A stretch of 64,000 nucleotides of DNA from Jimgerdemannia flammicorona (taxonomy: Eukaryota). Location of the stretch: assembly GCA_003990765.1 (NCBI GenBank), contig RBNJ01000005.1, positions 1 through 64,000 of the forward strand. The letters are read 5' to 3'. Below the pieces are notes generated by a model. The model made no database searches. It was not told where the DNA came from and worked only from the letters and a program-made list of their open reading frames with translations. Position numbers and translations under genes: made by a program. Shown here in pieces: positions 10,661 through 62,600 of the stretch; the first letter of the stretch is position 1, and each line of letters begins with the position of its first letter.

Positions 10661-12144
10661 TGTAAGCGCACAACCTCCAAGCCACCAAAATCGCATGGTA
10701 TCCTCAGAACTAATTTGGAAACCACATGCGAGACTACAAAACAAGAGATCATCTGGTTACACAAAATACACCAGCAAGTATGAGAACCCACCGCCAAGAT
10801 ACAAGAATACTAGAAGAAGTACTACAACCATAAGACTGACTCTGAACTGCTATAACTAGTTTGGTGTACTGTACTATTACAAAAGAAAACCGAAAGTACC
10901 AAACTCAAATCGAGACAAGAAGAACCCTATCTCATCTACCAAAAGGTTCACGAACTATACTTATCAACTCAAGACCAAGGTACACTGCAACTATACAAGA
11001 CCTCATTACTTAGCAGAAGCAAAATGCATTTGAACAACTCCATTCGCTCTATCTGTGTCACCTCCATTGGAGAGTGACGGACACTTCATCTGAACTCAAG
11101 AAAGCCGACAACGTCGAAACCAATCTCAAACCATCCATGTGACAGATATTACTACTAGAAATTACCTCAGATTACAGAAAATATCATTTCCGAGAGGTTC
11201 GAACCCCCAGCCGCGACATTGGGAGCCCTCGCCTTAGACGAGAATGGCCAGTCCTCGCAAATGCGTTAGCAGACCAAAAAAAAAGAGAACCAAGACCTGT
11301 TATCCTTGTACCACCACCACCACCAAAGACAGCCTTAATCTTGCAAGAGATAGAAGTGACGACACCTTGAAACTGATAATGTCAGAAGTCAGAAAACTGC
11401 TCAGACTTTGCTAGTGATGATGTCATCAATAGTGATGTCATCAAAGACTAACCAGACAGCACCTAAATCTATAAATAGCCTAGCAGTCATAGTATAGATA
11501 GATTAGCCTTGTACGACATGACTGTGAACTGACTCAGCAGTCAGACGATCTCTTGACATGTCAGATCACACTTGTACTATGTGACTGCATTCTGACTCAG
11601 CAAGGCACTAAGTGCTACATCCATATCTAGCATAGCCCAGATAGCCCCTCACTAGTATAAATACCCCCTCCCCCAGACCTCAGAATCTCAGACTTGAACA
11701 ATCTGAACACAACTCCTGAGTACTTTCCCACAATATCCCTTTATCCAACTACTCCTAGTATAGCAATATCATGAATAGCGAATAAACCTATTTAATAACC
11801 CACAAACCACTCTTAAGTAAATCTGCTCCCTGTTAGGTCCTACTCCTAACCCCATCACAAAATTTCCTAATTGGGTATTGTCTGCAGCGATATGCCAATT
11901 CAACTAAGCTGGTCTTAGTTTCTTGAACTTCCTGAAATATGGAAAATCCTGAACATCCAGAACTAGTCCGGAAAAGGACTTTGGTTGAGACATCAACCCG
12001 ATCTTGAAATCAATAAGCGTAGAGGACATACTCCATACGAAATTGATCTTGACCATAAGAAAACAGTCTTCTAGAATATCCAGAACTTCCAGAAAACCCT
12101 TCCAGAACTATGTAACAGTTATCCTAAAAAGCAACTCTCTTACA
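10661..12144 (+). repeat. 5' LTR of A2
   Basis: TGTAAGCG...CTTACA; TATAAATA at ~11657; AATAAA at 11781. Confidence 0.95.
10726..11370 (+). pseudogene. Possible decayed ~215-codon ORF in U3 of short family A LTRs
   Basis: ATG at 10726, frame unbroken to TGA at 11370; five internal stops, each one C>T from a sense codon, but largely shared between copies. Confidence 0.35.
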
Positions 12145-12147
12145 ACT

Positions 12148-12156
12148 TGGTAGCAG
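12148..12156 (+). promoter_or_regulatory. Primer-binding site, initiator tRNA-Met type
   Basis: TGGTAGCAG 3 nt after the LTR end; also at 17183-17191 (-), ~49445 (decayed) and 61659. Confidence 0.8.
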
Positions 12157-13106
12157 TGGTTTACAATCCAATTCCACTTCAAGATGCTTCCTCACCCTGC
12201 TACAAACCCCTCTGAGAATTCCTACAAGTTGGTACAAAGCCCAACCTCTGAACTGGAATTTATCCTGAACCATCTGACAATCTGGAGAGAATTGAACCTG
12301 ACGTATAAGGACAATTTGATCTCCACACCTACAACAAGTGGGACAAACTTCATTCAAAGAAAGAAGTACTCCGATTAAACCAGCAAATAGGCGAAACCCT
12401 ATTCACCGAACTCCTTGCACTACACCCAGTAAGTCAAGACGAAGAAGGTCTTATTGAAGCCTTCTTTACTCTTCTCAACAAGAGTTTTGTCAGCTCCACA
12501 AATCCGAGTGACCTAGGACAACCAGCAGCAGTCTTTCTAGCCTTAGTTCCTCACAAAGCCCAAGCCTCTATAGCCAAGTGGCTCAACTCTTCCGACTTTC
12601 ACCACACCAGGACCAAGACCGCATTATACTACCGATTCCAGAACAGCAAGGCCCACCATATTCTTAAAGAAGAAGCAAGAGAAACCCTTCATCAACTACC
12701 TGACCCAGAATCCGAAGCAGGCCCTGCTACAGCTCTACCCGAATCTGAAACCAATACCGAACCAGAACTTGACTTTGAATTAAGTCCTTCTGAAATCAGA
12801 TATACAACTGACTCTGTCTACTTTGATGCCGAGCAAACCCAATTACACAGGGACCAAATCAAAGAGGAGGAGGAGTATCTCAGTGAATTCGATCCCGGAT
12901 ACACCACTGAAGGAAATGCACCTCCATCAGGACAAAATACACCAACACAGCAACAGACAGTCATCTATCAAGCCCTTACTCTAGACTCACAACTACTACT
13001 CCAGCAACTTACACAGACCCAAAGAACACCCTCATACTCTGCACCAGTACCTCAAGTAGTACCAGTAACACCACTACCAGTAGTCCAATCGCCCCCAGTA
13101 AACAAC

Positions 13107-15541
13107 ATGGCGAACCAACAGATTCTAGACCTCACAGCCCAGATAGCCATAATGGCAGCAACCATTACTGCCTTAGCTGAACAGACCTGACCTACAAAAA
13201 ATCTGAGCCTACCTACCTTCAATGGTACTGCACAAGAAGTCCAAAGCTTCATTAGTGTAGTTGACACCAACTTCGAAGCCAATCAATGGACCAATGAGCG
13301 AGTTGCTGACCGTGTTCTGACAAACAATCAAGACCCTACTCTGGAACAACTCTTTGCTACCACTACAGCATATGTCCGCCAAGTTGTTACATTCTTCCGA
13401 GGACCTGCTGAAGAATGGTGGCGAACCCTTCCTGAAAAACCCCTCACATGGGACACCCGACCTGCAGTAGTTGCTCAGAATGCAGCAAACCATGCCCCAG
13501 GATATGGAGCCCATCCTGCAGCCCCTGGACTTAAACAACTCATGATTGCTCAATACCGCAGCAAAACCATGATTGCCGAATCTCGAGTAAAACTCCACAA
13601 CCTCAAATTTGATGACATGGCAAAGAAGAATTCGAAACCTTCTGTACAAAACTCAAGTCACTCCTGAATACTGTTGGCCTAGGATATATTGCCAATGATG
13701 AAGCATGAAATGGTACAAGAGCAGACCATTTATTCGATGCCCTACCTGAATGGCTTACTAGAAAAATCTGAGAACAAGGCCGCCCAGTTGGTTGTGATTA
13801 CCAACAATGGTGCCTGGCAAGAATCAAGACTATGGTCAAGCGAATCCTAACAGCTGGACCAATTCTGCCCCGAAGACAATTTAATAATAAGGAAAAGACT
13901 TGGACCAAGAAAGAAGAACCCAAGCATGAAGCATCCCGAGCTCCCTCCACATCCACCTCTTGGACACCCAGAAATCACAAACCCACCCAGCCGAGTACCT
14001 TCAAGAAACTCACTGAAGGAGAAAGGAATGAACTTCGAAGAAGCAGAGCATGCTTCTATTGCCGAAAGACATGACACATGGCCAGTGCCTGCCCTAACCG
14101 AAAACCCCGAACAGCAACATGAGCAACTGTTACCACTCTGCACCACCTCAACAACCTGACCACCAGAACACTAGACTTTGTCAAGTTAAGACAAACTGCT
14201 AAGGCCCCAACCAAAGGAAGTCAAAAAGCAGCTGGATATGACCTGTATGCAGCCAAAGAAGCTACAGTCTCTAACCGAGAAGTTAAGCAAGTCTACACAG
14301 GAATCAGCATCCAAATTCCTGAAGGACATGTTGGAAGAATATGCTGTCGCAGCAGCCTAGCATTGAAAGGACTCTCAGTAGAAGGAGGAGTCATTGACGA
14401 AGATTACACAGGCGAAATTATTGTCCTCATCCAGAACCACAGTTGGACACCCTTCAAAATTCCCATAGGTTTCTGCATTGCCCAGATCCTATTCGAGAAA
14501 ATCGAGTCAACCCTGACAGTCAAGGAAGTCCCTGAACTATTACCTACCATCTGAGGATCCAAAGGATTTGGCTCATCAAACAAGACCCCAGCCCAACCTA
14601 CCATGAACAAAGAAGAACAATTCTACAAGAAAATTGAAGATGGATATGTACCAAGTGGCCGATGTCCCCATGGCATTGGAATGTACTCTTCCCGAATGAT
14701 TGATGATTGCTTCTCTTGTGTCAATGAACTGGCTCAAAGAAGAACCAACAGAAGGAAAGCTCCTATAACCGAAATCACCACCATTGGATCAGACAAACTG
14801 CTTACACTTAAGGCTTTTGTCAACAGAGCACCTGTCAGGATTATGATAGACAGTGGGGCCTCAGGCAACTTCATCAATGAAGAAACAGCCAACAGACTCA
14901 AGGTCTTCACCTCTCTAGTACAACAGACTCAAGCAGTCGCCACAGCTGATGGAACCTCACATGTCATTAGCAAAGAAGTCCGCAACCTACCCTTCCAAAT
15001 TGGTGACTACCGAATACATGTTACCTTCCAAATCATACCACTTCCTGACAACGAAATCATCCTTGGGACTCCATGGTTAAAACAAGAGAACCCTATGATC
15101 GATTGGATAAACCATTCTCTGACCATCAAGAAAGGATGCCACAACTTCAAACTGTAAGGTGAAAAGGACCCACTCAACTCTGGCGATCCTGGACTAAAGA
15201 TCACTCACATCAACAAGCTACAACTCAAGAAATTGGCCAAGAAATATCCTCTTTTTGCCATCTCCATCCGCCCATCCAAAGGAGAACCCGAGAACTCTGA
15301 AGAAGACTTTTCCAAAGTTGACAGCTATGTCAGACCACTACTCCAAAAGATCCGAGACACATTTCCAAACCGAACCACAAAACCACCTGTACCTGTCATT
15401 ATTAATGACTAAGAAGAGTATGAAGTTAAACAAATTCTCAACAAACACAGCCACAAGAACCATCCAAATGGTACAACAGCACCAGAACAAATTAGAAGGC
15501 CCCGACGAGAACGTCGAAAGCTAAGAAGGGGAGAGTTGTAA
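13107..15541 (+). pseudogene. gag-dUTPase-protease-partial chromodomain of A2
   Basis: MANQQILDL; CFYCRKT..H..C knuckle; dUTPase ~14175-14580; CPHG..CFSC; IMIDSGASGNF, ILGTPWL; frame ends at TTG TAA across the LTR start. Confidence 0.9.
15523..15535 (+). promoter_or_regulatory. Polypurine tract of A2
   Basis: AAGAAGGGGAGAG immediately before the 3' LTR. Confidence 0.9.
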
Positions 15542-17020
15542 GCGCACAACCTCCAAGCCACCAAAATCGCATGACATCCTCAGAACTAATTTGGAAACCA
15601 CATGCGAGACTACTAAACAAGAGATCATCTGGTTACACAAAATACACCAGCAAGTACAAGAACCCACCGCCAAGATACAAGAATACTAGAAGAAGTACTA
15701 CAACTATAAGACTGACTCTGAACCGCTATAACTAGTTTGGTATACTGTACTATTACAAAAGGAAACCGAAAGTACCAAACTCAAATCGAGACAAGAAGAA
15801 CCCTATCTCATCTACCAAAAGGTTTATGAACTATACTTATCAACTCAAGACCAAGGTACACTGCAACTATACAAGACCTCATTACTTAGCAGAAGCAAAA
15901 CGCATTTGAACAACTCTGTTCGCTCTATCTATGTCACCTCCATTGGAGAGTGACGGACACTTCATCTGAACTTAAGAAAGCCAACAACGTCGAAACCAAT
16001 CTCAAGCCATTCATGTGACAGATATTACTACTAGAAATTGTCTCGGATTACAGAAAATATCATTTCCGAGAGATTTGAACCCCCAGCCGCGACATTGGGA
16101 GCTCTCGCCCTAGACGAGAATGGCCAGTCCTCGCAAATGTGCCAGCAGACCAAAAAAAAAGAGAACCAAGACCTGTTATCCTTGTACCACCACCACCACC
16201 AAAGACAGCCTTAATCTTGCAAGAGATAGAAGTGACGACACCTTGAAACTGATGATATCAGAAGTCAGAAAACTGCTCAGACTTTGCTAGCGATGATGTC
16301 ATCAATAGTGATGTCATCAAAGACTAACCAGACAGCACCTAAATCTATAAATAGCCTAGCAGTCATAGTATAGATAGATTAGCCTTGTATGACGTGACTG
16401 TGAACTGACTCAGCAGTCAGATAATCTCTTGATATATCAGATCACACTTGTACTATGTGACTGCATTCCAACTCAGCAAGGCACTAAGTGCTACATCCAT
16501 ATCTAGCATAGCCCAGATAGCCCCTCGCTAGTATAAATACCCCCTCCCACAGACCTCAGAATCTCAGACTTGAACAATCTGAACACAACTTCTGAGCACT
16601 TCCCCACAATATCCCTTTACCCAACTACTCCTAGTATAGCAATATCATGAATAGCAAATAAACCTATTTAATAACCCACAAACCACTCTTAAGTAAATCT
16701 GCTCCCCGTTAGGTCCTACTCCTAACCCTGTCACGAAATTTCCTAATTGGGTATTGTCTGCAGTGATACGCCAATTCAACTAAGCTGGTCTTAGTTTCTT
16801 GAACTTCCTGAAATACGGAAAATCCTGAACATCCAGAACTAGTCTGGAAAAGGACTTTGGTTGAGACATCAACCCGATCTTGAAATCAATAAGTGTAGAG
16901 GATGTACTCCATATGAAATTGATCTTGACCATAAGAAAACGGTCTTCCAGAATATCCAGAACTTCCAGAAAATCCTTCTAGAACTACGTAATGGTTACTC
17001 TTAAAAGCAACCCTCTTATA
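15537..17020 (+). repeat. 3' LTR of A2
   Basis: Direct repeat of 10661-12144; terminal CA mutated to TA. Confidence 0.95.
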
Positions 17021-17194
17021 CAAATTATCCTTGTACATCAGGTTCAATTCTCTCCAGATTGTCAGATGGTTCAGGATAAATTCCAGTTCAGAGGTTGGGC
17101 TTTATACCAACTTGTAGGAATTCTCAGAAGGGTGTGTAGCAGGGTGAGGAAGTGTCTTGAAGCAGAATTGGATTGTAAACCGCTGCTACCAAGT

Positions 17195-18595
17195 TGTAAG
17201 AGGGTTGCTTTTTAGGATAACTGTTACATAGTTCTGAAAGGGTTTTCTGGAAGTTTTGGATATTCTGGAAGACCGTTTTCTTATGATCAAGATCAATTTC
17301 GTATGGAGTACGTCCTCTACGCTTATTGATTTCAAGATCAGGTTGACATCTCAACCAAAGTTCTTTCTCAGACTAGTTCTGGATATTCAGGATTTTCCAT
17401 ATTTCAGGAAGTTCAAGAAACTAAGACCAGCTTAGTTGAATTGGCGTATCGTTGCAGACAATACCCAATTAGGAAATTTCGTGATGGGGTTAGGAGTGGG
17501 ACCTAACAGGGAGTGGATTTACTTAAGAGTGGTTTGTGGGTTATTAAATTGGTTTATTTGCTATTCATGATATTACTATACTAGGAGTATTTGTGTGAAG
17601 AGATATTGTGGGGAAGTGCTCAGGAGTTGTGTTCAGATTGTTCAGGTCTGAGATTCTGAGGTCTGGGAGAGGGGGTATTTATACTAGTGAGGGGCTATCT
17701 GGGCTATGCTAGATATGGATGTAGCACTTAGTGCCTTGCTGAGTCAGAATGCAGTCATGTAGTACAAGTGTGTTCTGACATATCAAGAGATCATCTGACT
17801 GCTGAGTCAGTTCACAGTCACATCATACAAGGCTAATCTATCTATACTATGACTGCTAAGCTATTTATAGATTTAGGTGCTGTCTGGTTAGTCTTTGATG
17901 ACATCACTATTGATGGCATAATTACTGGCAAAGTCTGAGCAGTTTTCTGACTTCTGACATCATCAGTTTCAAGATGTTGTCACTTTTATCTCTTGCAAGA
18001 TTAAGGCTATCCTTGGTGGCAGTGGTTGTACAAGGATAACAGGTCTTGGTTCTCTTTTTTTTTGGTCTGCTGGTGCATTTGCGAGGACTGGCCATTCTCG
18101 TCTAGGGCGAGGGCTCTCAATGTTGCGGCTGGGGGTTCAAACCTCTCGGAAATGATATTTTCTGTAATCTGAGGCAATTTCTAGTAGTAATATCTGTCAT
18201 ATGGATGGCTTGAGATTGGTTTCGACGTTGTCGGCTTTCTTGAGTTCAGATGAAACATCCGTCACTCTCCAATGGAGGTGACACAGATAGAGTGAACAGA
18301 GTTGTTTAAATGCATTTTGCTTCTGCTAAGTAATGAGGTCTTGTATAGCTGCAGTGTATCCTGGTCTTGAGTTGATAAGTGCAGTTTGTGAACCTTTTGG
18401 TAGATGAGATAGGGTTCTTCTTATCTCAATTTGAGTTTGGTACTTTCGGTTTCCTTTTGTAATAGTACAGTATACCAAACTAGTTATAGTGGTTCAGAGT
18501 CAGTTTTATAGTTGTAGTACTTCTTCTAGTATTCTTGTATCTTGGCAGTGGGTTCTCATGCTTGCTGGCGTATTTCGTGTAACCAGATGATCTCT
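17195..18595 (-). repeat. 5' LTR of A1, truncated at its U3 end
   Basis: Direct repeat of 5954-7353; homology stops abruptly at LINE sequence. Confidence 0.92.
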
Positions 18596-23290: not shown

Positions 23291-23299
23291 AAAGATGGG

Positions 23300-26200: not shown

Positions 26201-26584
26201 ACTAAATCAAGTTCTCCACTAAATACAGAATACTGCCAAGATTGTCATGCTATACAAGATTTTCCTATAGAAATTACACACTTTTGGAGATCATCATACT
26301 ATACTGAGATCACCATACTATACAGAGATCATCACACTGAAATTATATAAAGAAAACAGCTAAATTACTAGATTATCACTTATACACAAATCGCTGCTAT
26401 ACTCAGAGAACCTATCTCAATAAGGAAATTGATATACAAATTGCTCACAGATATCCAGCTTTGACTATTATACTACTAAATACTAAGAATATTTTGTTGC
26501 TTTTAACAAAGTAACTGGGGATTTAAGCCAAACTACACCAATCTCCAACCTTATAATTTACCTCTATTGAGCCTGATATATTAA
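23300..26584 (+). mobile_element. 3' fragment of a family B-related Ty3/Gypsy (RNase H, integrase, ORF3, decayed LTR)
   Basis: KPFILYTDASKDGLG, YHLQINDMIERINQT, KWEGPY; ORF3 remnant 24771-25285; LTR ~25330-26584 resembles the reverse complement of 35123-36482. Confidence 0.88.
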
Positions 26585-32040: not shown

Positions 32041-32448
32041 GTGTGAACAATGCTTGAAGAAAACCAATGAGTGCAAATAAGCAAAAAAGGTAAAGTGTTA
32101 GCCAACTGCTATATCGAGGGGCCGCAAGTATATATTTCCACAATTTTAACAGGAGGTTGCTGCATTTGAAGCTTGAGCCTGTGGAAAATTCCGAAATTTC
32201 CAATCACATGCAGGGTGATGTCAATCAAACCTCTGGAAAAAATAAAAGCATGAACCAATGAACAATAGCGCCAATGAAGAAAGGATGACGGATTTGGGTA
32301 CGCCATTGCATCACTCACTAGCCACATTGTGCGAATTTGGCATTACGCCAGATTCTCACTCGTGATTGCTGATGTTGAAGCTTTGAGGCTGAACCACATC
32401 TTGCCCACTTTAATACTTCCCTTTGAACCCTTCACTTCCACCGAAAAA

Positions 32449-44024: not shown

Positions 44025-44042
44025 TTCTCAGTTGAGCCCCCA
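44025..44042 (-). promoter_or_regulatory. Primer-binding site, tRNA-Pro type
   Basis: TGGGGGCTCAACTGAGA after the 5' LTR; matches the tRNA-Pro PBS start TGGGGGCTC. Confidence 0.75.
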
Positions 44043-44044
44043 AA

Positions 44045-45348: not shown

Positions 45349-47479
45349 CTATATAAGTAATGAGAATACTAGAAATATATATATTAGTAGATGAAAAGAT
45401 AGCAGTCCTGGCTGACCAAGTTACTATATTAATCCAGCTCTTTATCTCAGAATTAAAACAAATAAACTTATAAAAGGCCTCTGACTTATACCATTTAAAG
45501 ACAAGTAGACTAAGTAATAATATTTATCAGATAAGTAGATATTAATTATTATACTAATAAATAGAATAATAATCAGAACTCAGACAGCATTCTTATCAAC
45601 AATGAGTACTATGAGATTAAAGATCTCTATGTAACTATAGGCTCACAAGTAGAGAAAGTTACTACCCATTTTACAGACATAGCTATCCAGTAATGATACA
45701 ACCTTCTAGTATACCTCTCACTTGGGAAATATATATAAAAATTGAGACATGTGATAGAGATAATGATTACTCTGACTATAAAGTCTACTCAGCTATCATG
45801 AGGCTAAAGAAGCTGATTATCCAATAGTTCTATAGCTCTACCCACATTACTAAAGCCAAAACTAAGCTCAAAAACCTCCAATTCTATAATAATAAAAAAA
45901 AAGATCTAGATGCATTTGCAACAAGATTAAAACCTTTCCTGAATACTATAAGAGTAGAGTATAATCAATGAGAACAGACTGTGAATAAACTCAGAGTAAT
46001 ATACTTCATTGATACCAACTTTGGATAGTTATTGAAAAAGATTCAAGAACAGGAACAATTCTATAATTATCTATAGAAATAATAGTATCTAGAATAAGCT
46101 ATCACTAAAGCATATACTATCCTAGTAGCTCAAAGACTAAGAGATAATAGAAACAACAATAAAGAGAACAAGTAACATCAATTCAAAAGAAGTATAAATC
46201 CTAGAATAACTCCTCAAGACTATAAGATAGATATAAGAGAATATCTAATAAGGAATTTGAAGAACTCAAGAAGAAAGGAGTATATTTCTACTGCAAGAAG
46301 ACTGAATACATATCTTATAAATATTCTAAGAAAAAGACCAATATGAACAAAAGATTACCTTCTCCCTTATATACTGTCAATATAATAGAAGATGATCTCA
46401 AAGAAACTCCTGAGAAGATCAAAGTCAAGAGAATCTATATTACTGTAAAAATCTCAGATAAAGTATACAAATCTGATGCTGACTATAACCTCTACTCAAG
46501 TATAGAGATAATCATTGAACTAGATAAGTAAGTAATTATTAGCACAGATATTAGAATAGAAGTTCCCAAAGAAACCTATATTTGTCTTATAGAAAGAAGT
46601 AGTCTGACTAAGGAAGAAAGACTCTGTATAGCTGGAGAAGTTATAGGTCAAGGATTCAAAGATGAAATCAAGATCCTGCTATATAATACTGAACAAAAAC
46701 TAGTCAAAATTATATGTGGAAAATAAATTGTCCAAGCCATTATTAAGATAATATATAATTATCTCAAAGTATAAGAAATGAATGAAGTATTATTCTCTAA
46801 TAGAAGAGAAAAGGCTTTTGAATTAATAGAAAATTACTCTGTAAAGACCAAGATACAAAGATCATTTATATTAAAGAATCTCAAGATGGAGATTAGATAT
46901 AGTACTAGTACATTATAGATAGATATATTCTAGCTAGATAATGCTTCTACAGAATTAAGATATACTATTTTGAGTATATAGATAAATATATTACATATAT
47001 TCCCAAATTCAAGAAGTATAAGTAAACTATTTCTGAATATTAGAATGAAGAAATTAAGAATATCAATAATGAAGATAAAGAAGTATAAGATTGGAAACAA
47101 GTTACTCTAGAAACAATTGCCATCTAATAAGAAGGTAATCTTGAATACATCTGCCTATAAGAGAAAATTAGTTATAGTTCTTATTGACAGTAGAGCAAAC
47201 AAGTGTTATCTTGATAAGAAAACTTCTAATAAATTCAACCTTAAGATATAAAGAAACCCAGAAGAAAACATTGCTATATTTGATAATAATATAATTTAGA
47301 AACTCTCAAAAATCTGTAAAATACACTTCTATAACTAGAAGACTATACTACAAAGTAGATCTTTCATATTACATACCTTCTAAGATATAATCTCATTCTG
47401 GGAAAAATCTTACTCATATAAGAGAATCTGTATATTAACTGGCAAACTAATACAATCTCTCTAAGATATATTAAGCTAT

Positions 47480-50400
47480 TATAAGAACACAATCTCTAAG
47501 TTATAGAAATCTACATCACCCTCAAAACAAATCTAGAAATTGTATATAAGATCATAAAGCTGAGTCAAACTATAGTCATAAATCATAAAGCTGAGTTAGC
47601 TTTAAGTTACAGAATATAAGACTTATAAAAACAGAATCTTACCAATCAAGATTGAGGATATATATATCAGATATATAGTATACCAAAACAGAGAACTATA
47701 ATAAAAAATAACTATAAATTCTCAAATATATATTCAGCTATGACTACTGAAGTCTATAACTATATCTGTACAGACATTTGGAATACTATTGTCAACTATA
47801 CTACAGTACTCTTGTCTCTTATCAATATCTATAGTTTATACTCCTCTATTTTATAAAAGTCTTATAGAATACTCTAAACATACTTAGCAAAGTTCACTAA
47901 ATTAGACAAATCTCAAGCTATTATTAAATCAGCTATTCTCTCAAAAATATAATTAACTACTATTATGATATAGATATTACTAAAATATCTCAATACTAGA
48001 AACTCATTATATGTAAATACTGAGAACTCTTTTACAAATATAGCATCTTTATTTTCTGTCTTCAAGCTACTACTACTGAAATGTTCATCACTCTGATCTA
48101 TGGCCAAATTAACAATATGGTGCAAGAACTCAACCAGAAATATATCAAGTATGTCTGAATCACTGACAGACTTTTCTTACATCCAGATGACTATATTTTG
48201 CAAATATCTTAAGTTAGATATTCCATGAAGGATATCTACAATATAATCTAATTTGACAATAATGAAGTAGAAGATAATGATCTCTCTACTAACTCTATCA
48301 ATGAACTTACAACAGTTTATATCTATTTATAAGATCTATTACATAAGATAATAACCACTAGTATGAGTATTAACCCATATTCATATCTAACTATTTTAAC
48401 TATAATAAAGAAATAGGAGAACACAATCTGTATCTCTAGACAATTCTTAAGATAGAATTAACAACCTTACCTTCTAAGTATAAGTGATATGAAGAACAAC
48501 TTCCAGTATACTACAACTCTGTAACATATAGTACTGTAACCTATCAAAGATATATTAATAGCAAATTCAATAAAAGCAAAGATAAAGTACCTTCACTATC
48601 TACCAATACCATACTCAGTATATGAGATAGATGATGCTATTCTATGAGATAATCAGTTTATTTCAATATATTACTATATAAATGAACAGAGAGATATAAT
48701 CCAAGAACTACTCTTTCTAGATAACTACTTTATTAGAGATGATATCATATGATGATCTCATCAACCTATACTCAGACAATATATAAGTCTATAAATAGCT
48801 TAGCAGCTATTAGTATAGTTAGATTAGTAAGTACTATATAATTATATTCTGACTCATTAGTTAGTAAATCTCTTAATATATCAGTTTATAACTTATACTA
48901 TAAAACTTAATTCTGACTCATCAAGTACTAAAAGTACTAATTCATATTTAGTCTAGTCTAGATAGTCTCTCATTAGTATAAATACTCTCTCTTCCAGATC
49001 TCAGAAAATTAGATAAAAAATACAAACAATCTGAGTATAAACAATCTCTTATACAAATAATCCTTCACATACTACTCCTAGTATTTACTAATAGCAATAT
49101 TATGAATAGTGAATAAATCTATTTAATAACTCTCAAACCACAATTAAGTAAATCTATACTATATTAGATCTCACTCCTAACTACTCTAGAAATTTTCTAA
49201 TTAAATATTATTTATAGTAATATACTAATTCAACTAAACTGGTCTTAGTTTCTTGAACTTTCTGAAATAATAGAAATTCTGAACATCTAAAACAAGTTCA
49301 AGAAAAGGACTTTAATTGAGATGTTAACCTAATCTTGAAATCAATAATTATAGAGAATGTACTCTATATAAAATTGATCTTGATCTAAAAAAAATAGTCT
49401 TCTAGAATATTCAGAGTAATTTAACAAAGTACTCTCTTATAACTTAGTAGCAGTAGTTTACAATTCAATTCTACTTTAAGATACTTTCTTATATAGCTAT
49501 AAATCTTCTCAAAAATTTCTACAAGTTAGTATAAAGCCTAACTACTGAACTAGAATTTATCCTGAACTATCTGACAATCTGGAGTAAATTGAACCTAATA
49601 TATAAGGACAATTAGATCTCTACACCTGTAACAGATAAGATAAGCTTTATATAAATAATATAGTACTCTAGTTAAACTAACTAATAAGAGAAAATCTATT
49701 TATTAAACTTCTTACTCTACATTCTATAAGTCAAGATGAAGAAGGTTTTATATAAGCCTTCTTTACTCTTTTCAATAAGAGTTTTATAAGCACCAAGAAC
49801 CCAAGTGATCTAGGATAACTAGTAGCTATCTTTCTAGCCTTAGTATTATATAAAACCCAAGTATCAGTAGTCTAGTGGCTTAACTCTACTAATTATTACT
49901 AAACCAGAACAAAGACTATCCTATATTACTATTTTTAAAATTATAAGATCTATCATATTTTTAAAGAAGAGATCAGAGAAACTCTTTATCAATAATCAAT
50001 AACTGAGCTAGAAGTAGGTCTAGCCAGAACTCTTCCTGAATCCAAAACTGAATCTGAAGCTAAACTAGACCTTAAGGAGCTTTTGATTTAAGCTCATCTG
50101 AACTCTATTATACAATAATACTATCTACTTTAATGCAGAACAAACTCAGCTACAATAAGACTAAAATAAAGAAAAGGAGAAGTATCTCACTAAATTCAAT
50201 ATAGAAATTCAGGACAAAACATATCTACAGAACAGCAGATAGTTATCTATCAGACCCTTATACCAGATTTATATCAGTCACTCTAGCAACTCATACAAAC
50301 TCAAAAAATATCTTTATACTTGCACTTTAAATTATATCAATAACTCCACTATTAGTAGTATAACTATCTTTAGTAAACAATATGACAAATTATCAAATTC

Positions 50401-53400
50401 AGAATCTCATAGCCCAAATAGCTATAATGGCAGCAACTATTACTGCCTTAGTTAAACAGACTAGATTAACTAAAAGTCTGAGTCTACTTATCCTCAATAG
50501 TACTATATAAGAAGTTCAAAGCTTTATTAGAGTAGTAGATATCAATTTTGAAGCCAATCAATAGACTAATATATAAGTAAGTTACTGATCACCTTCTGAC
50601 AAACTGAGATCACAATATTAAACAACTTTTTGCTACTACTATGACTTATATCTACAGAGTTATTACATTTTTCTGAAGACCTGCTGAAGAATAGTAGTGA
50701 ATACTTCCTAAGAACCTCTAATATAAGACACCCAATCTGCTGTTTTTACTCAAAATATAGCAAATAATTCCCCTAGATATAAAGACCACTCTATAGCTCC
50801 TGAGCTTAAATAACCCATAATTACTTGATATCTAAGTAAAATCCTAATAGCTGAATCTTGAGTTAAACTCTATAATTTTTAATTTAATATATATAAAAAA
50901 GAAGAATTTAAAACCTTCTATATAAAACTCAAGTTACTTCTGAATACTGTTAGCTTAGAATATATCACCAATGATGAAGCACAAAATAGTATAAGAGCAG
51001 ACCACTTATTCAATATACTACCAGAATAGCTTACTAGAAAAATCTAAGAATAAGATGACTCTATTGGTTATAATTACCAAAAATAATACCTGAGTAGAAT
51101 TAAGATCATAGTTAAGTAAATTCTAACTGCTGAACCAATTCTATCTCAAAAAAAAATTCTATAGATATAATAAAGAAAAACCATAAACCAAGAAAGAGAA
51201 ACTCAAACATAAACTATCCCAAGCTCTCTCTATATCCACATCCTAGATATCTAGAAATTCTGAACCTATCTTACTAAGTACCTTCAAAAAGCTCACTGAA
51301 GGAGAGTGAAATAAACTCAAAAGAAGTAGAGTATACTTCTATTGCTGAAAGACAGAATACATAGCTAGTGCTTGTTCTAATAGAAAACTCTAAACTATAA
51401 TATAGGCAACTTCACCACTCTGTACCATCTCAATAATCTGACTACCAAAATACTAAACTTTATCAAGTTAAGGATAACAGCTACTGCCCCTACTAAATAA
51501 AGCTAAAAAGTAGCAGATATAATCTATATATTACTAAAGAAGATATAGTATCCAACTATAAAATCAAGTAAGTCTATATAGAAATCAGTATACAAATTCC
51601 AAAAGAATATATTGGATAGATATATTCTTATAGCAGTCTAGCATTGGAAGAACTCTCAGTAGAAAGGGGAGTTATTGATGAAGATTACATAGATAAAATT
51701 ATTGTCCTCATCTGGAACCATAGTTGGATACTCTTCAATATCTCTATTGATTACTATATTGCCTAGATCCTATTTCAGAAAATTGAGTCTACTCTAATAA
51801 TTAAGAAAGTTCCTAAACTACTATCTACTATCTGAGGTTTAAAAGAATTTGACTCATCAAACAAAGCCTCAGTCTAATTTACAGCAAATAAGAAAGAATA
51901 ATTCTATGGAAAAATTGAAGAAGAATTTATATCTAGTAGTTAATACTCTTATAGTATTAAAATATACTCTTCTTAAATAAATAACAATTACTTCTCATAT
52001 ATTAATAAATCAGTCAAATAAAGGACTAACAGAAAAAAGCCACCAAAATATATAGTTACTATTATAGATCAGACAAACTGCTTATCTTGTAAGCTTTTAT
52101 CAATTGAGTCCCTGTCAAGATCATAATAGACAGTACTATTTCTGGCAACTTTACTAATAAATAGAAAACCAAAAGACTTAAAGACTGACCTTCTCAGTAT
52201 AACAAATACAAGCAGTTGTCACTGCTGATAAACCTCACATATTATTAAAAAGGAAGTCTGCAATCTACTCTTCAGAATTAGTAACTACTGAGTATATATT
52301 ACTCTCCAAATTATATTACTCCCAGATAATAAGATTATTCTTAGAATATCTTAGTTAAAATAAAAAACTCTATAATAGATTAAGTAAACCATTCTCTGGC
52401 TATAAAGAAGAGACAATATAGTTTTAAGCTATAAGATGAAAAGGTTTATCAATTCTAGTGAATCTGACTAAAGATCATTTGTATCAATAAACTCTAACTT
52501 AAGAAATTAGTAAAAAAAAAATGCTCTTTCTTTGTTATTTCCATATGCTCATCTAAAGGAGAACTAAGAAATCTTAAGAAAGACTTCTCTAAAGTTGACA
52601 ATTAAGTCAGACCCATGCTCCAGAGATTTTGAGACATATTTTCAAAGAAACTATTTAAGAGACTACTATCTATTTAAGTAGTAGATCATACAATCAAGAC
52701 TATATCAAGTGTTAAACTAGTCTTTAAGTCTATCTACTATATATCTTCTAGAGAAATTGATACTCTTAAAAAAGAGATTGATGAACTTCTAGAATAAGAA
52801 TTCATTAGGCCTAATATATTATTATATAGTATATAAGTCTTCTTTATTATCAAAAAAGGAGGAGATCTCTGTATATATATTGATTATTAAGATCTCAATA
52901 AACAGATTATTAAGAACTGTTGCCCTCTACTTTGAATTGATGAAGTCTTTGACAGACTTATCAACTTACAATTTATGAGTTCTTTTAACCTCTAAAATAG
53001 ATACTGGTAAATTGCTATAAAGGGAGACATCTACAAAACTACCTTCTGAACCTACTCTAGATACTTTGAATTTTAAGTTATATTCTTTGACTTAACTAAT
53101 ACTTCTACAATATTCCAGATCTTGATGAATACTCTTCTATATCTATATCTAAATAAATTTATTATTATCTATATTGATGATATTTTAATCTTTAGCAAAA
53201 CCCTAAAGAAATATCTTAAACATCTTAAACTAGTACTACACAAACTCTGAGAAAACCAACTCTTTATAAAACTTAGTAAATAAAAATTTCTTTTGAAAGA
53301 AATTCAATTTCTTAGAAATATAGTTACACTTAATGGAATTAAAGTAGATTTTAGCAAAATCTCTGTAATTAAGAAATGGCCCAGACTCAAGAAGCTAAAA

Positions 53401-56400
53401 GACCTTTAGTTATTTTTAGAATTAATAAACTATTATATGTAATTTATTATAAACTTTGGCAAAATCACCACTACTCTTATCTAACCAACTAAATATAGTA
53501 AAAAAGAAGAATAACTCTAGACTATAAAGTAAGAAAAAGACTTCAACAATCTTATTAATTAGAGATCTGAATAAGATATAGTGTTTCAAGTCTTGAAAGA
53601 TACTCTGATAACTACTCCAGTACTTTAAGCAATAAATCCTACTATGTTATATAAAGTTACCACTGATGCCTCTGAGCTAGCTCTTAGAGTAGTACTTATA
53701 CAAGAAGAATACCCTGTGGCCTATCATTTCAGTAAGTTCAATGATACTAAATTAACTATACTATCTATGAGAAAGAGATGTTAGCCATTATAAATACTCT
53801 GATTAAATAGCATCTATACTTTAAAGGAGTACACTTCACTATTTTGATAGACTACAAATTATTGATCAATATCAAGACCCAGGCTATTCTTTTCCAAAAG
53901 TAAACTAGATAGATGAAAATTCTTACCAACTTTGACTATGATATCTAGTACTACTCTTATAAGAAAAGTATTATTACTGATATTATCTCTATATTACTCA
54001 TTGATGAAGTAATCCAAACTCTTATCTTAGTTACTAATTCTATTATAGAATAAGTTATCACAGCATATATTGATGATAAAAAAGCTCAACCATGTTAAAA
54101 AATCTTGAGTAATGATAATATCAGTATATAATCTCAATACTATCACTACTAATTAAAAGATAATACTATTTATTATAAGGATAAATTGAATATTTCTAAC
54201 AACTGCAATCTCTAAAGAACTATCTTCTTTAAATATCATAATACTCCTATAGTTAGATATATATTTAGAATTTGATAAATATTATAATTTTATCTCCTAA
54301 AACTTCTATTAGCTCTAAATAGTAAACTAGTTAAAGATCTATATTACTTCTTAAGATATCTGCTAGCAAAACAAGTTCTCAACTTTAGCAAAACTAAAAC
54401 TACTCAACTCTATCTCAGTACTCTCTGTTAATTGGAAATAAATCACAATAGACTTTATTATATAACAACTTTAAACCAATAATGAGAAGGATATAATTGT
54501 TGTCTTTATAGATTATTTCAACAAATAAGCCCACTTTATATCTACTACTATAACTACAATAGTATCTGAAATTACTACTCTTTTATTTAACAATATCTTC
54601 TACTATCTTGGTCTCTCTAAAATCATTATTAGTAACTGAGATCCAAAATTCACTATTTATTTTTGAAATGCTCTATACTTATACCTTGGAACAAAACTAG
54701 TACTATCTACTGTCTTTTACCCTAAAACTGATAGCCAAACTGAAAGAATGACCTAAATTCTTGAGCAAATACTAAGGAACTATATTTCTTATAAGTAAGA
54801 TAATTGGCATAAATATCTCACTATAGTTAAGTTTGCCTACAATAATAGTAAATAAGCCTCTCTTAAAATAACTCTATTTTTTTTAATAATATAGAATAAA
54901 ACCCAAACACTCTCCTGACTCTTATCAGATCTACAGATGAGCTCTCTACTGTTGAAGCTATTGAAGAATTTCTACTCTAAATATACAACTTAACCCAAGA
55001 ATCTATCTCAAGTCCAAAACTAATAATCTCAGTATATCAACTGATACTATTGAGAAGAATTTTTTGATATTAGTGAAAACATCTTACTAGATATCCAAGA
55101 ATACTAAATTGATAACCTCAAGTACAAACCTTCTACAAAACTAAACAGTAAGTTCATCAGACTATTTAAAATTATTATATAAGTTTCTCTAATATCCTAT
55201 AAGCTAGCTTCATCAGATATGTACTATCAAGATTTCTCTGGTCTTCAATGTTCAACATCTCAAGCAATATAATGAAAATGGTGATGTCTTGTTTCTGAAC
55301 TAAACTATAAAACCACCAGTACCTATTATTATTAATAACTATGAGAAATATAAAGTTGAACAAATTTTCAATAAATATAGATATAAGAACCACCCAGAAT
55401 ATCTTGTTAAATAGAAAGGTTATCTGATCTACAATACTATATAAGAACTCAGAACAAATCTCTCAAATGCTACTAATTTAGTTTAAGAATATAATTCTTT
55501 GAATAACTAGTTAAAATACTCTAATATCAACTATTACTATTGCTTCTTTCTCTACTACCTTATTAGTTATAAGATTTGATAGGTATCCTTCCAAGTCTCC
55601 TTTCCTCTATTATTACTCCCTCTATCTTGGATTGATTTGCTGTACCTGTAAGAGCATAGTGGGTGGGAGGTAATGGTGTTGAGGTGCTCCTTTATCAGTA
55701 TAAGATCAGTGTCTTCTCCACTTTTTCATAGTTTCTAGAACCTTTGACTGTATCTGGGTATACCTATTTTGATGTGGTGTTTTCTTTCTTTTACTATCAT
55801 CAATGAGGTATCATCTTGGTATATCATAGACTATATATAATATCAGCCAATATTGGGTATTAAGTACTAGTAAATGTTATCTGCAGGTCTCTGATACCTG
55901 TGGTAGGACTCTCTGAGCTTTAGTGAGCTTCCCAGTAAGTATAGTTCTGATATAGGTGACTGCTTTTCAGATTGAGTTAAGATGAGAGGGGAGATGGTCA
56001 TCATAAATAAGAGAAAGAGTAATTATAGTAGATCAGTAAGATGCTAGACTAGAAGTAGTCATTGGGGCTGGGGCAGATACTATATCAGTAGGATCTTTTG
56101 ATTGATATAGAGAGGTTAGGTGGTAGGTATTACTCTCAGCTACTTTTGGCAAGTTATGAAGTTAGGCCCTGGTCATTAGAGATGATTGGGAGACCTAAGG
56201 CTATCTGGGTCAGGTATCTTGGCTGCACTCAACTTTGCCCTATTGTATTTGATATGGTTGAGCTACTAGACAATAGCTAGCCTAAGTTTAATAAGGGTAT
56301 AGTGCTTGGGGGGTGGTAGGGGAGGATTTTGGCCTATATAGTCGAGGTTCTCTTTTAATAAAATCTGTAGGACTTCAGGTTCATTAAACAAAAAAAAAAA

Positions 56401-57170
56401 AAAAAAAAAAAATCAACTATCACCATACTATATATATTATTCTTCCAAACATTATTAGCTCTCTTATAATTATTATGAAAACTCAGTCAAAATCTTAGCA
56501 AAATTAAGATAAAAGAATATCTACTATTTAGAAAATAGCAAAACTAAAAGTCAGTCTATTCTCCCTATACTATTAGTGAGAAATGAGATATAGATATTTA
56601 AGAAGATTTCTTAGAGAAAATTCTCTAATAATGAATAATGTCAGAATTACTTCTAGTATACAGCATCAAATATATAATTCTTTAATATATAATTTAATAT
56701 ATTAGACAACTATACTATAAGTATATCACTTTCTAAAAAAAATGAATATTTTCAGACTTTTGTCTATCCAAATAGTATAATAACACTAAACTTAAATTAT
56801 AAGAACTCAATGAAGATGTAAAAAACTAAGGAGAGAGTTGTAAATATATAATCTCTAAGCTATAGAAATCTACATTACTCTCAGATCAAATTCAGAAATT
56901 ATATATAAGATTATAAAGCTGAGTTAACTCAAAGTTATAGAATATAAAACTCATGAAAACAGAACCTTATCAATCAAGATTGAAGATATATATATTAGAT
57001 ATATAGTATACCAAAACAGAGAACTACAATAAACAATAACTATAAATTCTCAAATATATATCCAGCCATGATCACTGAAGTCTACAACTGTATCTATACT
57101 AATATTTGAAATACTATTGTCAACTGTGCTATAGAACTCTTATCTCTTATAAATATCTATAGCTTAGTAC
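47480..57170 (+). mobile_element. Old, once-autonomous family A chromovirus (long-U3 LTR), heavily AT-shifted
   Basis: LTR 47480-49441; Gag ~50382; dUTPase ~51460-51860; PR ~52120; RT YIDDILIFS ~53170; RH TTDAS ~53660; IN ~54240-55250; chromodomain ~55340-55500; PPT and partial 3' LTR from 56839. Confidence 0.88.
55541..56411 (+). mobile_element. 5'-truncated non-LTR retroposon insertion with poly(A) tail
   Basis: ~22-nt A tail; 15-bp TSD ATCAACTATTACTAT (55526-55540) / ATCAACTATCACCAT (56412-56426). Confidence 0.8.
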
Positions 57171-59614
57171 TAATATAAACTCTCACCTTAGTTATTAACT
57201 CTATTATAGAATAAATTATCACAGTATATACTGATGATAAAGAAGCTCAAGTATTCTGAGAAATCTTGAGCAATGATGATATTGACAAGTACTCTCAGTA
57301 TCACTAGTATTAATTGAAGAACAATATTATCTACTATAAGGAAAGATTGTATATTTCTAACAATCAAGACCTCTGAAGGACTATTCTATTCAAATATTAT
57401 AATACTCCTATAGCCAGATATTTAGGATTTGACAAATACTATAAAGTTATTTTTTGATACTTCTATTGGCCCTATATAGCAAATTGGTTAAAGACCTACA
57501 TCACTTCCTGTAATGTTTGCCAATACAACAAGTCCTCAATACTAGCAAAACCTGATCTACTCTACCCTATTCCAGTACTATCTGCTAATTGGGAATAAAT
57601 ATCTATAGACTTTATTGTACAACTACTCTAAACCAATAATGAGAAAGATGTAATTGTTGTCTTCATAAACTATCTTAGCAAAAAAGTCTATTTAATACTT
57701 ATGGCTACAATAGCAATAGTATCTGAAATTACTTTACTCTTATTTGATAATATCTTCTACTATCATAGTCTTCTCAAGATTATTATTAGTGACTGAGATC
57801 CAAAATTCACAAGCTACTTTTAAAAAGCTCTACATATATACCTTGGAATGAAACTTGTACTATTTATAGCCTTTTATCTCACAACTGATGACCAAACTGA
57901 AAGGATGAATCAAACACTAGAACAAATGCTAAGGAACTATATTTCCTATAGGCAAGATGATTGACATAAATACCTTACTACAGTTGAGTTTACCTATAAC
58001 AACAGCAAACAAACTTCTCTTAAAATGACTCTATTTTTTGCCAATATAGGATAAAACCTGAACACCTCTCTGACTCTTAGCAGAACTATAAATGAACCCT
58101 CTACTGTTGAAGCTATGTATTGAAGAATTTCTACTCTGAATGTATAATATAAGCCAGATTGAAATTGAGAATTTTTCCTAAGCTCAAGGACAATAATTAT
58201 AGTATTTCAACCAATACTACTAAGAAGAAATATTTGACATCAGAGAAAAAGTTCTACTAGATATCTAAGGATACTGAGTTGACAACCTCAAGCACAGACT
58301 CTCTATAAAGCTAAATAGTAAATTTATTAGTCTATTCAAAGTTATTATACAAGTCTCTCCTACTTCTTACAAATTAGTACTACCAGATATCATCAAGATT
58401 CACTCTGTCTTTAATGTCCAACATCTCAAGTGATATAATGAAAATAATAATAAGCTATTCTCAAATCAAACTACAAAACCACCAGCACCTATCATTATTA
58501 ATGACCAGGAAGAATATGTAGTTGAACAAATCCTCAACAAATGTAGCCACAAGAACTATTTATAATATCTTATCAAATGGAAAGGTTATCCAATCTATAA
58601 AGTAATATGAGAACCCAAAACCAATCTCCAGAATACTACTAACTTAGTTCAAGAATATGATTCTTTGAACAACTAAACCTGAATACTCCAATACCTATTA
58701 GTCTTATACTATATATTACTTCTCTCAAATATTGTTAATACTATCCTTATAATTATCATAAATAAAATCAGAAACTCAGCAAGTCAAGATAAAAGAAATA
58801 CTGATTCTTTAGAAAAATAGCAAAACTGAAAGATAGTTTATTCTCTCTTTACTACTAGTGGAAAATGAGACATAGATATTAAGAAGATTTCTTAAAGAAA
58901 ATTCTCTAGCAGTAATGATATCAGAATCACTTCCAGTGCATAGTATCAAACACATGACCCTTTAATATATAAATTTAACATTTTAGGCAACTGTACTATA
59001 AGTATACCACTTTCTGAGAAAAATGAACATTATTAAACTTTTGACCATCCAAATAGTATAACAAACACTAGACCAAATTAGAAGACCTTGATGAGAACAT
59101 CAAAAGCTAAGAAGGGGAGAGTTGTAAGTACACAACCTCTAAGCCACCAAAATTGCATATTACCCTCAGAACAAATTCAGAAATCACATACAAGATTTTG
59201 AAGCTAAGTTAAACTAAAGTCACAGATCACAAAGCTAAGTTAAACTGAAGTTACAGATTACAAAGCTGAGTCAACTTGAAGTTATGGAATACAAGATTTA
59301 CATAAATAGAATCTTACTAATCAGGACTGAAAGTATATATACTAAATATGCAGATACATCAAAATGAAAAACTACAACAAACTAAACAAACAACTACAAC
59401 TCTTAAATATATCCCAAACATAATCACTGAAATCTACAACTATATCTATACTGATATTTGGAATATTATTATCAACTGAGCTACAACTCTTCTGCTCCTC
59501 ATAAATATCTATAGCCTAGCACTCCTCTATTTTGTAGAAGCCTGATGGAATGCCCTGAACATATATAGCAAAGCTCACTGAATCAGACAAATCTCAAGTT
59601 ACTACCAGATTAGT
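57171..59614 (+). mobile_element. 3' fragment of another old family A copy (integrase, chromodomain, PPT, partial LTR)
   Basis: Duplicates ~54020-57170; QTERMNQTLEQMLR; EEYVVEQILNK..YLIKWKGY; PPT then LTR from 59123. Confidence 0.88.
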
Positions 59615-62600
59615 TATAAGTGCACAACCTCCAAGCCACTGAAATCACATGCAATCTCTGAACAAATCTGGAAATCACCTACATGATCACAAAGCTGAGT
59701 CAAACTGAAGTCACAGTGCACAAAGCTGAGTCAACATGAAGTCACGGAATACAAGATTCACACAAATGGAATCTTACCAATCAGGACCAAATGCATATAT
59801 ACTGAGCACCAAGATGTGTCGAAACAAAGAACCAAAACAAACAATAACCACAACTTCTGAACATATACAAATATGACCACTGAGATCTACAACTGCATCC
59901 ATGCTGACATTTGGAATGCCATTGTCAACTGAGCCACCCCCTCTGCCCCTCATGAATATCTATAGCTTAGCACCTCTCTACTTCATGGAAGCCTGATGGA
60001 ATGCCCTGAATATACTTAGTGAGGCCCACTGAATTAGACAAATCTCAAGTTACTATCAGATCAGTCACCTCCTAGAAGACATGGTCGAACACCACCACGA
60101 TACAGACATCACTCAGATGTCTCAACATCAGAAACTCATTTCCTGCAAACATCAAGAACTCTTCTATGAGTATAGCACTGTTATTCTCTGCCTCCAAGTT
60201 ACTACCACCGAAATGGTTGCTACCCTGTCCTATGGCCAAATCAACAACATGATACAAGAACTCAATCACAAGTACCTTGAGTATGTTGAGACTACAGACA
60301 GAACCTTTCCACACCCCAATGACCATATCCTGCAAATGCCTCAAGTCGGATATGCCATGAAGGATGTCTATGATATAATCTGATTTGATAAAGATGAAGT
60401 AGAAGACAATGATCCCTCTGATGCTGATATGACCTCAAGCCAAGGATCCCTGCCAACCCTGATCACACCACCAACCTTACCGATGAACTTACAATAGTTC
60501 ATAACTACATATGAGACTTATTGGGACAATGATCACTGGTATGAATACCAACCCACATTTATTCTCGATTACTTTAATTATAATGAAGAGACTGGAGAAC
60601 ACAACCTGTATCTTCAGACAACTCTCAAGATCAAACCAACAACTCTGCCACCCAAGTACAAGTGATTTGAACCACAGCCACCAGCTTACTACAACCCTGC
60701 AACTCATAGTGCTATAACCTATAGAAGGTATACAGATAGTGAATCTGATGAAAGTAAAGATGATACACCACTCCTTTACCCACCAATACCTTATCCAGTA
60801 TACAAGACAGAAGACGCGATCCTGTGGGACAGTGATGAAGTTCCAATGTATTATTACCTCAGCGAATAAGGAGAAGTAATCTGCAAACTACTCTTCCTAG
60901 ATGACTATGTTATCAGAGATGATGTATTGATGGTAATGTTATTGAAGACTACCCAGACAGTGTCTAAATCTATAAATAGCTTAGCAGTCATAGTATAGTT
61001 AGATTAGCCTTATACAATATGACTGTGAACTGACTCAGCAGTCAGATGATCTCTAGATATGTCAGATCACACCTGTACTATGTAACTACATTCTGACTTA
61101 GCAAGACACTAAGTGCTACATCCATATCTAGCATAGTCCAGATAGCCCCTCACTAGTATAAATACCCCCTCCCCCAGATCTCAGAATCTCAGACTCGAAC
61201 ACACCAGAACAATCTGAACACAACTTCTGAGCACTTCTCCACAATATCTCTTCACATAACTACTCCTAGTATAGTAGTATTATAAATAGCAAATAAACCT
61301 ATTTAATAACCCACAAACCACTCTTAAGTAAATCTGCTCCCTGTTAGGTCCCACTCCTAACCCCATCACAAAATTTCCTAATTGGGTATTGTCTGCAGCG
61401 ATATGCCAATTCAACTAAGCTGGTCTTAGTTTCTTGAGCTTCCTGAAATACAGAAAATCCTGAACATCTAGAACTAGTCCGAAAAAAAACTTTAGTTGAG
61501 ACATCAACCTGATCTTGAAATCAATAAGTGTAGAGGATATACTCTATATGAAATTGATCTTGACCAGAAGAAAACAGTCTTCCAGAATATCCAGAACTTC
61601 CAGAAAACTCTTCCAGAACTATGTAATGGTTACTGTAAAAAGCAACCCTCTTACAACTTGGTAGCAGTGGTTTACAATCCAATTCTGCTTCAAGATGCTT
61701 CCTCACTCCACTATAAACCCTTCTGAGAATTCCTACAAGTTGGTATAAAGCCCAACCTCTGAGCTGGAATTTATCCTGAACCATCTGACAATCTGGAGAG
61801 AATTGAATCTGACATATAAGGACAATTTGACCTCTACACCTGTAACAAGTGGGACAAACTTCACTTAAAGAAAGAAGTACTCTGATTAAATCAGCAAATA
61901 GGTGAAACCCTATTCACCAAACTCCTTGCCCTACACCCAGCAAGTTAAGATGAAGAAGGTCTTATAGAAGCCTTCTTTATCCTTCTCAATAAGAGTTTTA
62001 TCAGCTCTATAAATCTGAGCGACCTAGAACAACCAGCAGCAGTCTTTCTAGCCTTAGTCTCTCACGAAGCCCAAGCCTCTGTAGCCAAGTGGCTCAACTC
62101 TACCAACTTTCACCATACTAGGACCAAGACTGCATTATACTACCAATTCCAGAACAGCAAGGCCTGCCATATTCTTAAGGAAGAAGCAAGAGAAACCCTT
62201 CATCAACTATCTGACCCCAAACCAGAAGCAGGCCCTACTACTGCTCTACCTGAATCTGAGACCAACACTGAACCAGAACTTGACTTTGAACTAAGTCCAT
62301 CTGAAATCAGATATATAACTGATTCTGTCTACTTTGATACTGAGCAAACCCAATTACATAGGGACCAAACCAAAGAAGAGGAGGAGTATCTCAGTAAATT
62401 TGATCCCAGATATATCACTGAAGGAGACACACCTCCATCAGGACAGAATACACTGACACAGCAACAGATAGCTATCTATTGAGCCCTCACTCCAGACCCA
62501 CAACTACTACTCCAGCAACTTACACAGACCCAAAGAACTCCATCACACTCTGTACCAGTACCTCAAGTAGTACCAGTAACACCACTACCAGCAGTCCAAC

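Follow-up and report, generated by a model that had tools for sequence, protein, structure and literature searches.

Described systems and the family A elements

In the retrotransposons Tnt1, Retrolyc1 and Retrosol, the U3 region of the long terminal repeat (LTR) defines subfamilies and evolves in a modular way against a conserved pol, and the U3 variants are described as regulatory (PMC1838419). In mouse mammary tumor virus (MMTV), an accessory gene, sag, overlaps the U3 of a long LTR, and a U3 deletion in the variant type B leukemogenic virus (TBLV) truncates sag (PMC9147501). The DNA analyzed in this study is a stretch of 64,000 nucleotides from Jimgerdemannia flammicorona (RBNJ01000005.1, positions 1 to 64,000), hereafter the window, which is part of one contig of a 231-Mb assembly. 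Matches to the chitin synthase family PF01644 at three loci make a fungal host most likely. Self-comparison of the window was used to map its elements and revealed nested LTR elements. Family A, one of these, has a long and a short LTR type. The long LTR contains a selected protein gene in its U3. In the short LTR, most of this gene has been replaced by a dead fragment of another Gypsy family, family S, which means gene loss by patching and not a swappable slot.

Like Tnt1, Retrolyc1 and Retrosol, family A has one backbone with distinct U3 regions (PMC1838419). Unlike them, it has a protein gene in one U3 and the integrase end of another family in the other. Like MMTV, family A has an accessory gene in the U3 of a long LTR and a U3 variant that has lost the gene. 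MMTV sag, however, encodes a membrane protein with an immune function in a retrovirus, whereas family A is a fungal Gypsy element with a soluble-looking acidic protein. A sequence relation between sag and the A protein was neither found nor expected.

The additional open reading frames (ORFs) described in the sense direction of LTR retrotransposons are placed either upstream of gag or after pol and before the 3′ LTR (PMC7264820), and the ORF3s of rotifer elements are shared between lineages (PMC5408684). The gene of family A is similar in that it is located 3′ of pol, has been retained by most copies and is common to distant lineages, and family C of the window has its gene in the same position as the described ORFs. 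It differs in that the A and S genes lie wholly inside the LTR and gave no match to an env, esterase or nuclease family in Pfam and PHROG searches. Pairs of autonomous and non-autonomous elements are known among fungal chromoviruses (PMC3248453). In family A, too, a pol-less parasite shares the genome with a chromodomain Gypsy element, but this parasite also has a chimeric LTR, derived from a lineage with approximately 35% reverse transcriptase (RT) identity.

U3-modular subfamilies, additional ORFs, MMTV sag, fungal chromoviruses with parasites, and nesting are therefore known already. In the literature covered (titles and starts of abstracts, partial coverage), neither an inter-family U3 patch nor a fungal Gypsy LTR with a gene inside it was found described, which is a weak indication that such descriptions are absent. 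The main text of PMC3601003 contains no word that begins with "ORF".

A selected gene in the long LTR

The long LTR belongs to the third family A element of the window (A3). An earlier reading of the window made from its letters alone (the sequence-only reading) gave its length as 2,041 bp; it was measured as 2,042 bp.

59614..61655, + strand: 5′ LTR of A3, long type, 2,042 bp, adjoining the partial 3′ LTR of an older copy (copy B)
59873..60967, + strand: family A U3 gene, ATG at 59873 and stop at 60965-60967, 365 aa in intact copies, broken in A3

The same reading had noted a frame of about 370 codons here. The frame is real and encodes 365 aa in intact copies, but the A3 copy is broken by six in-frame stops and two small indels. 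The stop codon of the gene falls within the LTR part that both types share. A stop-free ORF was counted by hand in 41 of the 112 scored genomic matches. Across 47 copies, no codon of this frame was a stop in 80% of copies, whereas the other five frames had 4–18 such codons. Column diversity at the three codon positions was 0.144/0.077/0.212 (p = 0.0002), with the same order for transversions alone. The ratio of nonsynonymous to synonymous polymorphism (pN/pS) was 0.25 (0.30 for transversions), while the shifted frames gave 0.84 and 1.38. The long LTR contains a real, selected U3 gene of 365 codons, so this frame stood up to the check for open frames and selection that had been proposed for it.

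The A protein has a helical N-domain of approximately 145 aa and an acidic C-terminal half rich in proline and aromatic residues. Because LTRs are annotated as non-coding, standard pipelines overlook a gene such as this one, which encodes 365 aa under selection in a fungal LTR of high copy number.

A dead piece of family S in the short LTR

The short LTR was studied mainly in the second family A element of the window (A2).

10661..12144, + strand: A2 5′ LTR, short type, chimeric U3, 1,484 bp
10661..10741, + strand: family A U3 start in the short LTR, +1 to +27 like the long type
10742..11032, + strand: captured 3′ end of the S integrase, frameshifted (blastn 71%, tblastx), integrase stop at about 11031
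11033..11364, + strand: captured S 3′ untranslated region (UTR), decayed polypurine tract (PPT, beginning near 11341) and roughly 9 bases of the S LTR start (alignment)
11405..11466, + strand: residual A gene, the last ~18 codons and the stop, 11/18 residues identical
11444..12144, + strand: 3′ LTR part shared by both types, TATA-like motifs at 11470 and 11656, AATAAA at 11781

The borders of U3, R and U5 were placed by the TATA-like motifs and AATAAA. A coding frame of 215 codons had been proposed at 10726-11370. In A2, this frame has five internal stops. The same five stops were present in 28/28 copies picked by similarity and in 28–31 of the 30–31 copies picked by motif. The frame was no more open than the other two forward frames, and all six frames had shared stops. 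Codon-position bias was absent (p = 0.60), and pN/pS was 0.65, which is not below the other frames (0.45 and 0.52). Shared stops together with a lack of codon-position bias were the pattern that the sequence-only reading had itself named as speaking against coding. The 215-codon frame of the short LTR is not a gene; the piece is the integrase end and 3′ UTR of family S.

Sensitive blastn of 10746-11400 against 893 kb of genome sequence gave donor matches at seven distinct genomic places, six of them with 69–71% identity over approximately 520 nt (best 71%, E = 3e-74). In every case the match falls in the integrase end of family S, and an S LTR follows closely. The donor frame has an rve domain, and tblastx also aligned the donor with the short middle. 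Deletions of 10 bp and 24 bp relative to the donor were found in 31/31 short copies. The near-fixed differences between short copies and donor showed no codon bias (18/12/16 transitions) and were biased to C>T/G>A (59 vs. 24). The shared indels and the lack of codon bias indicate that the founder of the short type carried the captured piece in an already dead state. Of 456 columns in the patch, 106 (approximately 23%) showed fixed change. The transversion distance between donor and short copies was 1–10% depending on site class, larger than within either group (0–1%), indicating that the capture predates both expansions. RT identity between families A and S is 34–35%, and in the short LTR DNA has clearly been exchanged inside U3 between very distant Gypsy lineages, with heavy amplification of the product.

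The 6-mer GAGTCA at the left junction is present in both parents. This junction is spanned by a contig of another public run (10661-10979, 12 differences) and is therefore not an assembly artefact. Some short copies (L101 and one public-run contig) retain 9 additional donor-like bases at this junction. Since the short LTR retains the last ~18 codons of the A gene, the short type is the derived form. We also considered that the short U3 might be homologous to the long gene and have decayed, as frame 10726-11370 ends in the shared tail. This idea was dropped: the 31 short copies scored at most 7.1 with the long-protein profile and at most 4.4 bits with the domain profile, and the donor match explains the region.

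Two LTR types and the borders of the module

An exact 30-mer of the shared LTR part gave 406 matches, and 92 distinct places were examined from 100 listed, three of them in the window. A script labeled 48 places as long, 32 as short, 11 as other and 1 as too short. The 11 "other" places were read by eye: seven were long, two were short with indels or insertions, and two were left without type. The census thus comprised 55 long and 34 short LTRs, with three not placed in either type. No third U3 type was found among these 92 family A LTRs.

As the sequence-only reading had described, the two types share a loosely similar start (first ~65–80 bp, 78–83% alike) and a closely similar end (last 700 bp, approximately 91% alike), and no homology between their middles was detected by DNA alignment or protein profile. 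The columns that tell the two types apart fall at +28 to +77 (14 columns) and extend as far as 11443 (+783), in agreement with the breakpoint it had put at about 11445. There were zero diagnostic columns from −71 to +27 and in 11444-12144. Within 11444-12144, the distance between types (0.092/0.016) equals that within types (0.097/0.019 and 0.085/0.013). Because the diagnostic columns are confined to +28 to +783, this segment is an old module between current ends. The claim that the LTR ends swap their middles therefore holds for the module, but not for coding cassettes.

The sequence-only reading went further and suggested a modular cargo slot, in which U3 accepts different coding cassettes and the short, long and solo LTRs hold three unrelated genes. 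Two unrelated middles between shared ends, module borders that resemble recombination points, and real ORFs in the long and S LTRs would fit such a slot. We consider it very unlikely. The short middle is an integrase/3′ UTR relic with fixed stops in six frames and no codon bias. Among the 92 LTRs there are two U3 types, one of them non-coding, and no third. Of the three U3 ORFs that had been claimed, the long and solo LTR ORFs are real, but these two proteins appear to share a domain and are probably distant homologues.

Another explanation is that the short form diverged in place, with a neutral U3 that drifted while the 3′ LTR and gag were constrained, and that no old module was recombined. 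Two observations agree with it: divergence in the A-type flanks beside the patch is close to that of the patch, and the 3′ LTR tree has too little resolution for swaps to be counted. Zero diagnostic columns over 700 bp and a distance between types equal to that within types, beside ~23% change in the patch, are hard to obtain from constraint alone, and we regard divergence in place as rather improbable. Counting swaps by the shared 3′ LTR tree was tried and rejected: bootstrap was unsettled and transitions showed homoplasy, and the at least three changes that it forced were not relied on.

Association of the short LTR with pol loss

The internal regions and the remaining family A LTRs of the window are as follows.

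5954..18595, − strand: element A1, short-type LTRs, pol-less, interrupted by A2
10661..17020, + strand: element A2, inserted in A1, target-site duplication CAAAT at 10656-10660 and 17021-17025
12145..15536, + strand: A2 internal region with a motif like a primer-binding site, gag, protease, partial chromodomain and PPT; RT, RNase H (RH) and integrase (IN) deleted
15537..17020, + strand: A2 3′ LTR, short type, differing from the 5′ LTR by 4.6% transitions and 0.2% transversions
61656..64000, + strand: A3 leader and gag, continuing past the window with protease (PR)-RT-RH-IN-chromodomain-PPT and then a long LTR start

A1 and A2 have LTRs of 1.48 kb, and both contain gag, protease and a partial chromodomain without RT-RH-IN. 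In A2, a purine tract precedes the 3′ LTR; the LTR ends are of the TG..CA type, with TA at the 3′ LTR end in this copy. The continuation of A3 past the window has, after the protease, RVT_1, RT_RNaseH and SH3_Tf2-1 in that order, and a chromodomain at the C-terminus of the integrase (PF00385, E = 2.5e-15). The order PR-RT-RH-IN and the chromodomain identify family A as a chromodomain-bearing fungal Ty3/Gypsy element, a chromovirus. The internal regions of A2 and A3 had been called near-identical. They are ~90% identical, which equals the family average and is no closer than other members, and this holds over leader-gag-PR only; A3 has RT-RH-IN-chromodomain and A2 lacks it.

All 15 long-type 3′ LTRs (15/15) lie behind an integrase. 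Of 16 short-type 3′ LTRs, 13 follow the pol deletion of the A2 type, one follows another deletion, one an integrase, and one has only the 3′ UTR visible and was counted as pol-bearing. Pol deletion was therefore found with 14/16 short and 0/15 long LTRs (Fisher p = 5e-7). The short-type elements are non-autonomous: they have intact ends and multiple copies and are mostly without RT-RH-IN. Short LTRs also lie behind integrase-bearing or differently deleted internal regions (L128, L011 and L142). These copies suggest either that the short LTR is older than the common pol deletion or that it undergoes recombination with autonomous elements. Elements with and without the U3 gene form a natural pair, which shows that the gene can be dispensed with in cis and goes together with autonomy, so its function is testable.

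Origin of the chimeric U3

The patch reading, which we consider well supported, runs as follows. The autonomous form of family A has a 2.04-kb LTR with the selected 365-aa U3 gene. In the derived form, ~620 bp of the 3′ end of family S, comprising the integrase end, 3′ UTR, PPT and first LTR bases, stand in place of most of this gene. The patch probably arose once and long ago. We slightly favor a route in which an S element inserted in the U3 of an A element, with both sides later shortened by deletions; a somewhat less probable route is that reverse transcriptase switched templates twice between A and S RNAs. The old module (+28 to +783) would later have been recombined onto the current A backbone, or kept homogenised, by template switching with the autonomous partner. 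The short form may then spread as a parasite, with pol, and probably the U3 protein too, supplied in trans. A PPT moved upstream of a post-integrase gene would explain how the gene entered U3 in the first place.

Several points weigh against this reading. In plants, LTRs receive nested insertions least often, and joint movement of nested pairs was not seen (PMC6911290), which makes the nesting route weaker. Identity in the donor match is only ~71%, and an unsampled sister of S may have been the real donor. Approximately 20–40 bp (11365-11405) were assigned to neither parent. The link to pol loss is not absolute, as short LTRs occur behind integrase too (L128, L011). In the leader-gag comparison of the two types, the long type is represented by one element only.

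The captured piece might also have been kept as working DNA or RNA (an enhancer, a packaging or dimerisation signal, or a spacer), by which the short form exploits S or out-competes the long form. The short type makes up 34 of the 89 classified LTRs, the piece stops right at the donor PPT/LTR border, the 3′ UTR half has few indels, and its length is stable across copies. Divergence from the donor, however, is alike in the integrase and UTR halves and consists mostly of transitions, and the PPT and the TG start are changed. The short elements retain A-type ends, PPT and gag, which points to A as the helper. We judge a retained working role unlikely, and patching with a dead fragment remains our preferred reading.

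One accessory protein family in several Gypsy families

Two further genes of the window bear on the origin of the U3 protein.

2403..5381, − strand: family S stand-alone LTR; U3 gene at 4188-5249, an open frame of ~353 codons
36522..37028, − strand: family C accessory gene, ~170-codon ORF between integrase and 3′ LTR, same protein domain

The ORF of the solo S LTR is also real and high-copy. Sister copies of the family C gene are stop-free. A fourth high-copy family with the same domain was reached via the S protein (L180:251-769, L187, L189), and many of its copies are stop-free. A profile built without family A gave held-out A copies a median of 18.6 bits, whereas reversed copies reached at most 3.9 and 547 real-ORF decoys at most 6.9. 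The remaining three families behaved the same way in this test, which used small profiles and a strict, exclusive family assignment. In the A and S proteins, the N-domain is helical and bears a YxIGxxL motif, and the C-terminal half is acidic (D+E 22–23%, Pro 12%); the family C protein has a short acidic tail.

From these profiles, the A, S-LTR and family C proteins are very probably distant homologues that form one old accessory family, which appears to be common to at least four Gypsy families. Two results tell against our reading here: pairwise homology between A, S and C is weak (BLASTP E = 2e-4; 35/2000 shuffles), and hhalign of the shallow family alignments gave probabilities of 0.2–2.6%. 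A bolder extension, which we regard as speculative, is that an old, undescribed trans-acting accessory family moves between the post-integrase site and the LTR, and that cheaters drop pol and the gene together. The cheater of family A would have rebuilt its U3 from a lineage ~35% identical in RT, and the foreign piece would now be working (e.g., as an enhancer or packaging signal). If so, every solo LTR would be a gene copy.

The stand-alone S LTR contains four tandem repeats of ~175 bp at 2962-3786. A target-site duplication was sought around 2403-5381, and no matching pair was found. The family C Gypsy element lies at 35123-45348 (− strand). Its decayed relative at 23302-26573 (+ strand) likewise has an accessory gene between integrase and 3′ LTR.

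Candidate function of the U3 protein

Searches of Pfam and PHROGs gave no match of the U3 protein above the cut-off, including the env, esterase and nuclease families. A resemblance between the YxIGxxL motif and the N-terminal domains of DUF1016 was considered and rejected, as it had no Pfam support. The search for outside homologues gave 1/467 candidates; further searches gave 3 (one a repeat artefact), 2 and 12 (with a mixed profile) and one metagenome locus, none with an informative name. The best Atlas scores were 0.78 and 0.83, below the lead threshold. Foldseek on the predicted models (pLDDT 51 and 67) gave no match at E ≤ 0.001, and the best Z of 5.4 corresponded to common helical arrangements. 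Among public runs on record as RNA, none was found holding the stretch, and contigs of three runs show its presence only.

Acidic and aromatic tails fit activation domains. Since the U3 protein combines a conserved helical domain with an acidic, aromatic tail, we tentatively propose, from composition alone, that it may be a trans-acting booster of the element's own transcription. It would come from a subgenomic or U3-initiated RNA. The protein could instead be a silencing antagonist or a structural helper. Copies decay by C>T/G>A, which is consistent with methylation pressure; pol contains a chromodomain, and elements can do without the gene in cis. None of the searches by family, profile or fold gave a match pointing to such an activity, and the tail composition (D+E 22–23%) fits activation domains. 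We therefore consider an antagonist or helper less likely than the already tentative activator.

Other elements of the window

The remaining family A copy is old and heavily mutated.

47479..49440, + strand: copy B LTR, old, long type, heavily mutated, ~70% identical to A3

Copy B spans 47479-59613, and its integrase-chromodomain-PPT-partial LTR block is duplicated at 57171-59613. The start of A3 is the end of the second partial LTR of copy B. An open frame of 466 codons at 32278-33678 (+ strand) has a weak F-box-like match and is probably a host gene amid repeats. Remnants of a DDE_3 transposase-like element at 697-2520 (− strand) are split by the S LTR. Copia-type pol remnants (Pol_BBD, gag_pre-integrase) were found at 28374-28880 (+ strand). 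Related degenerate simple tandem repeats occupy 1-326 and 5570-5952, and the end of A1 abuts the second array.

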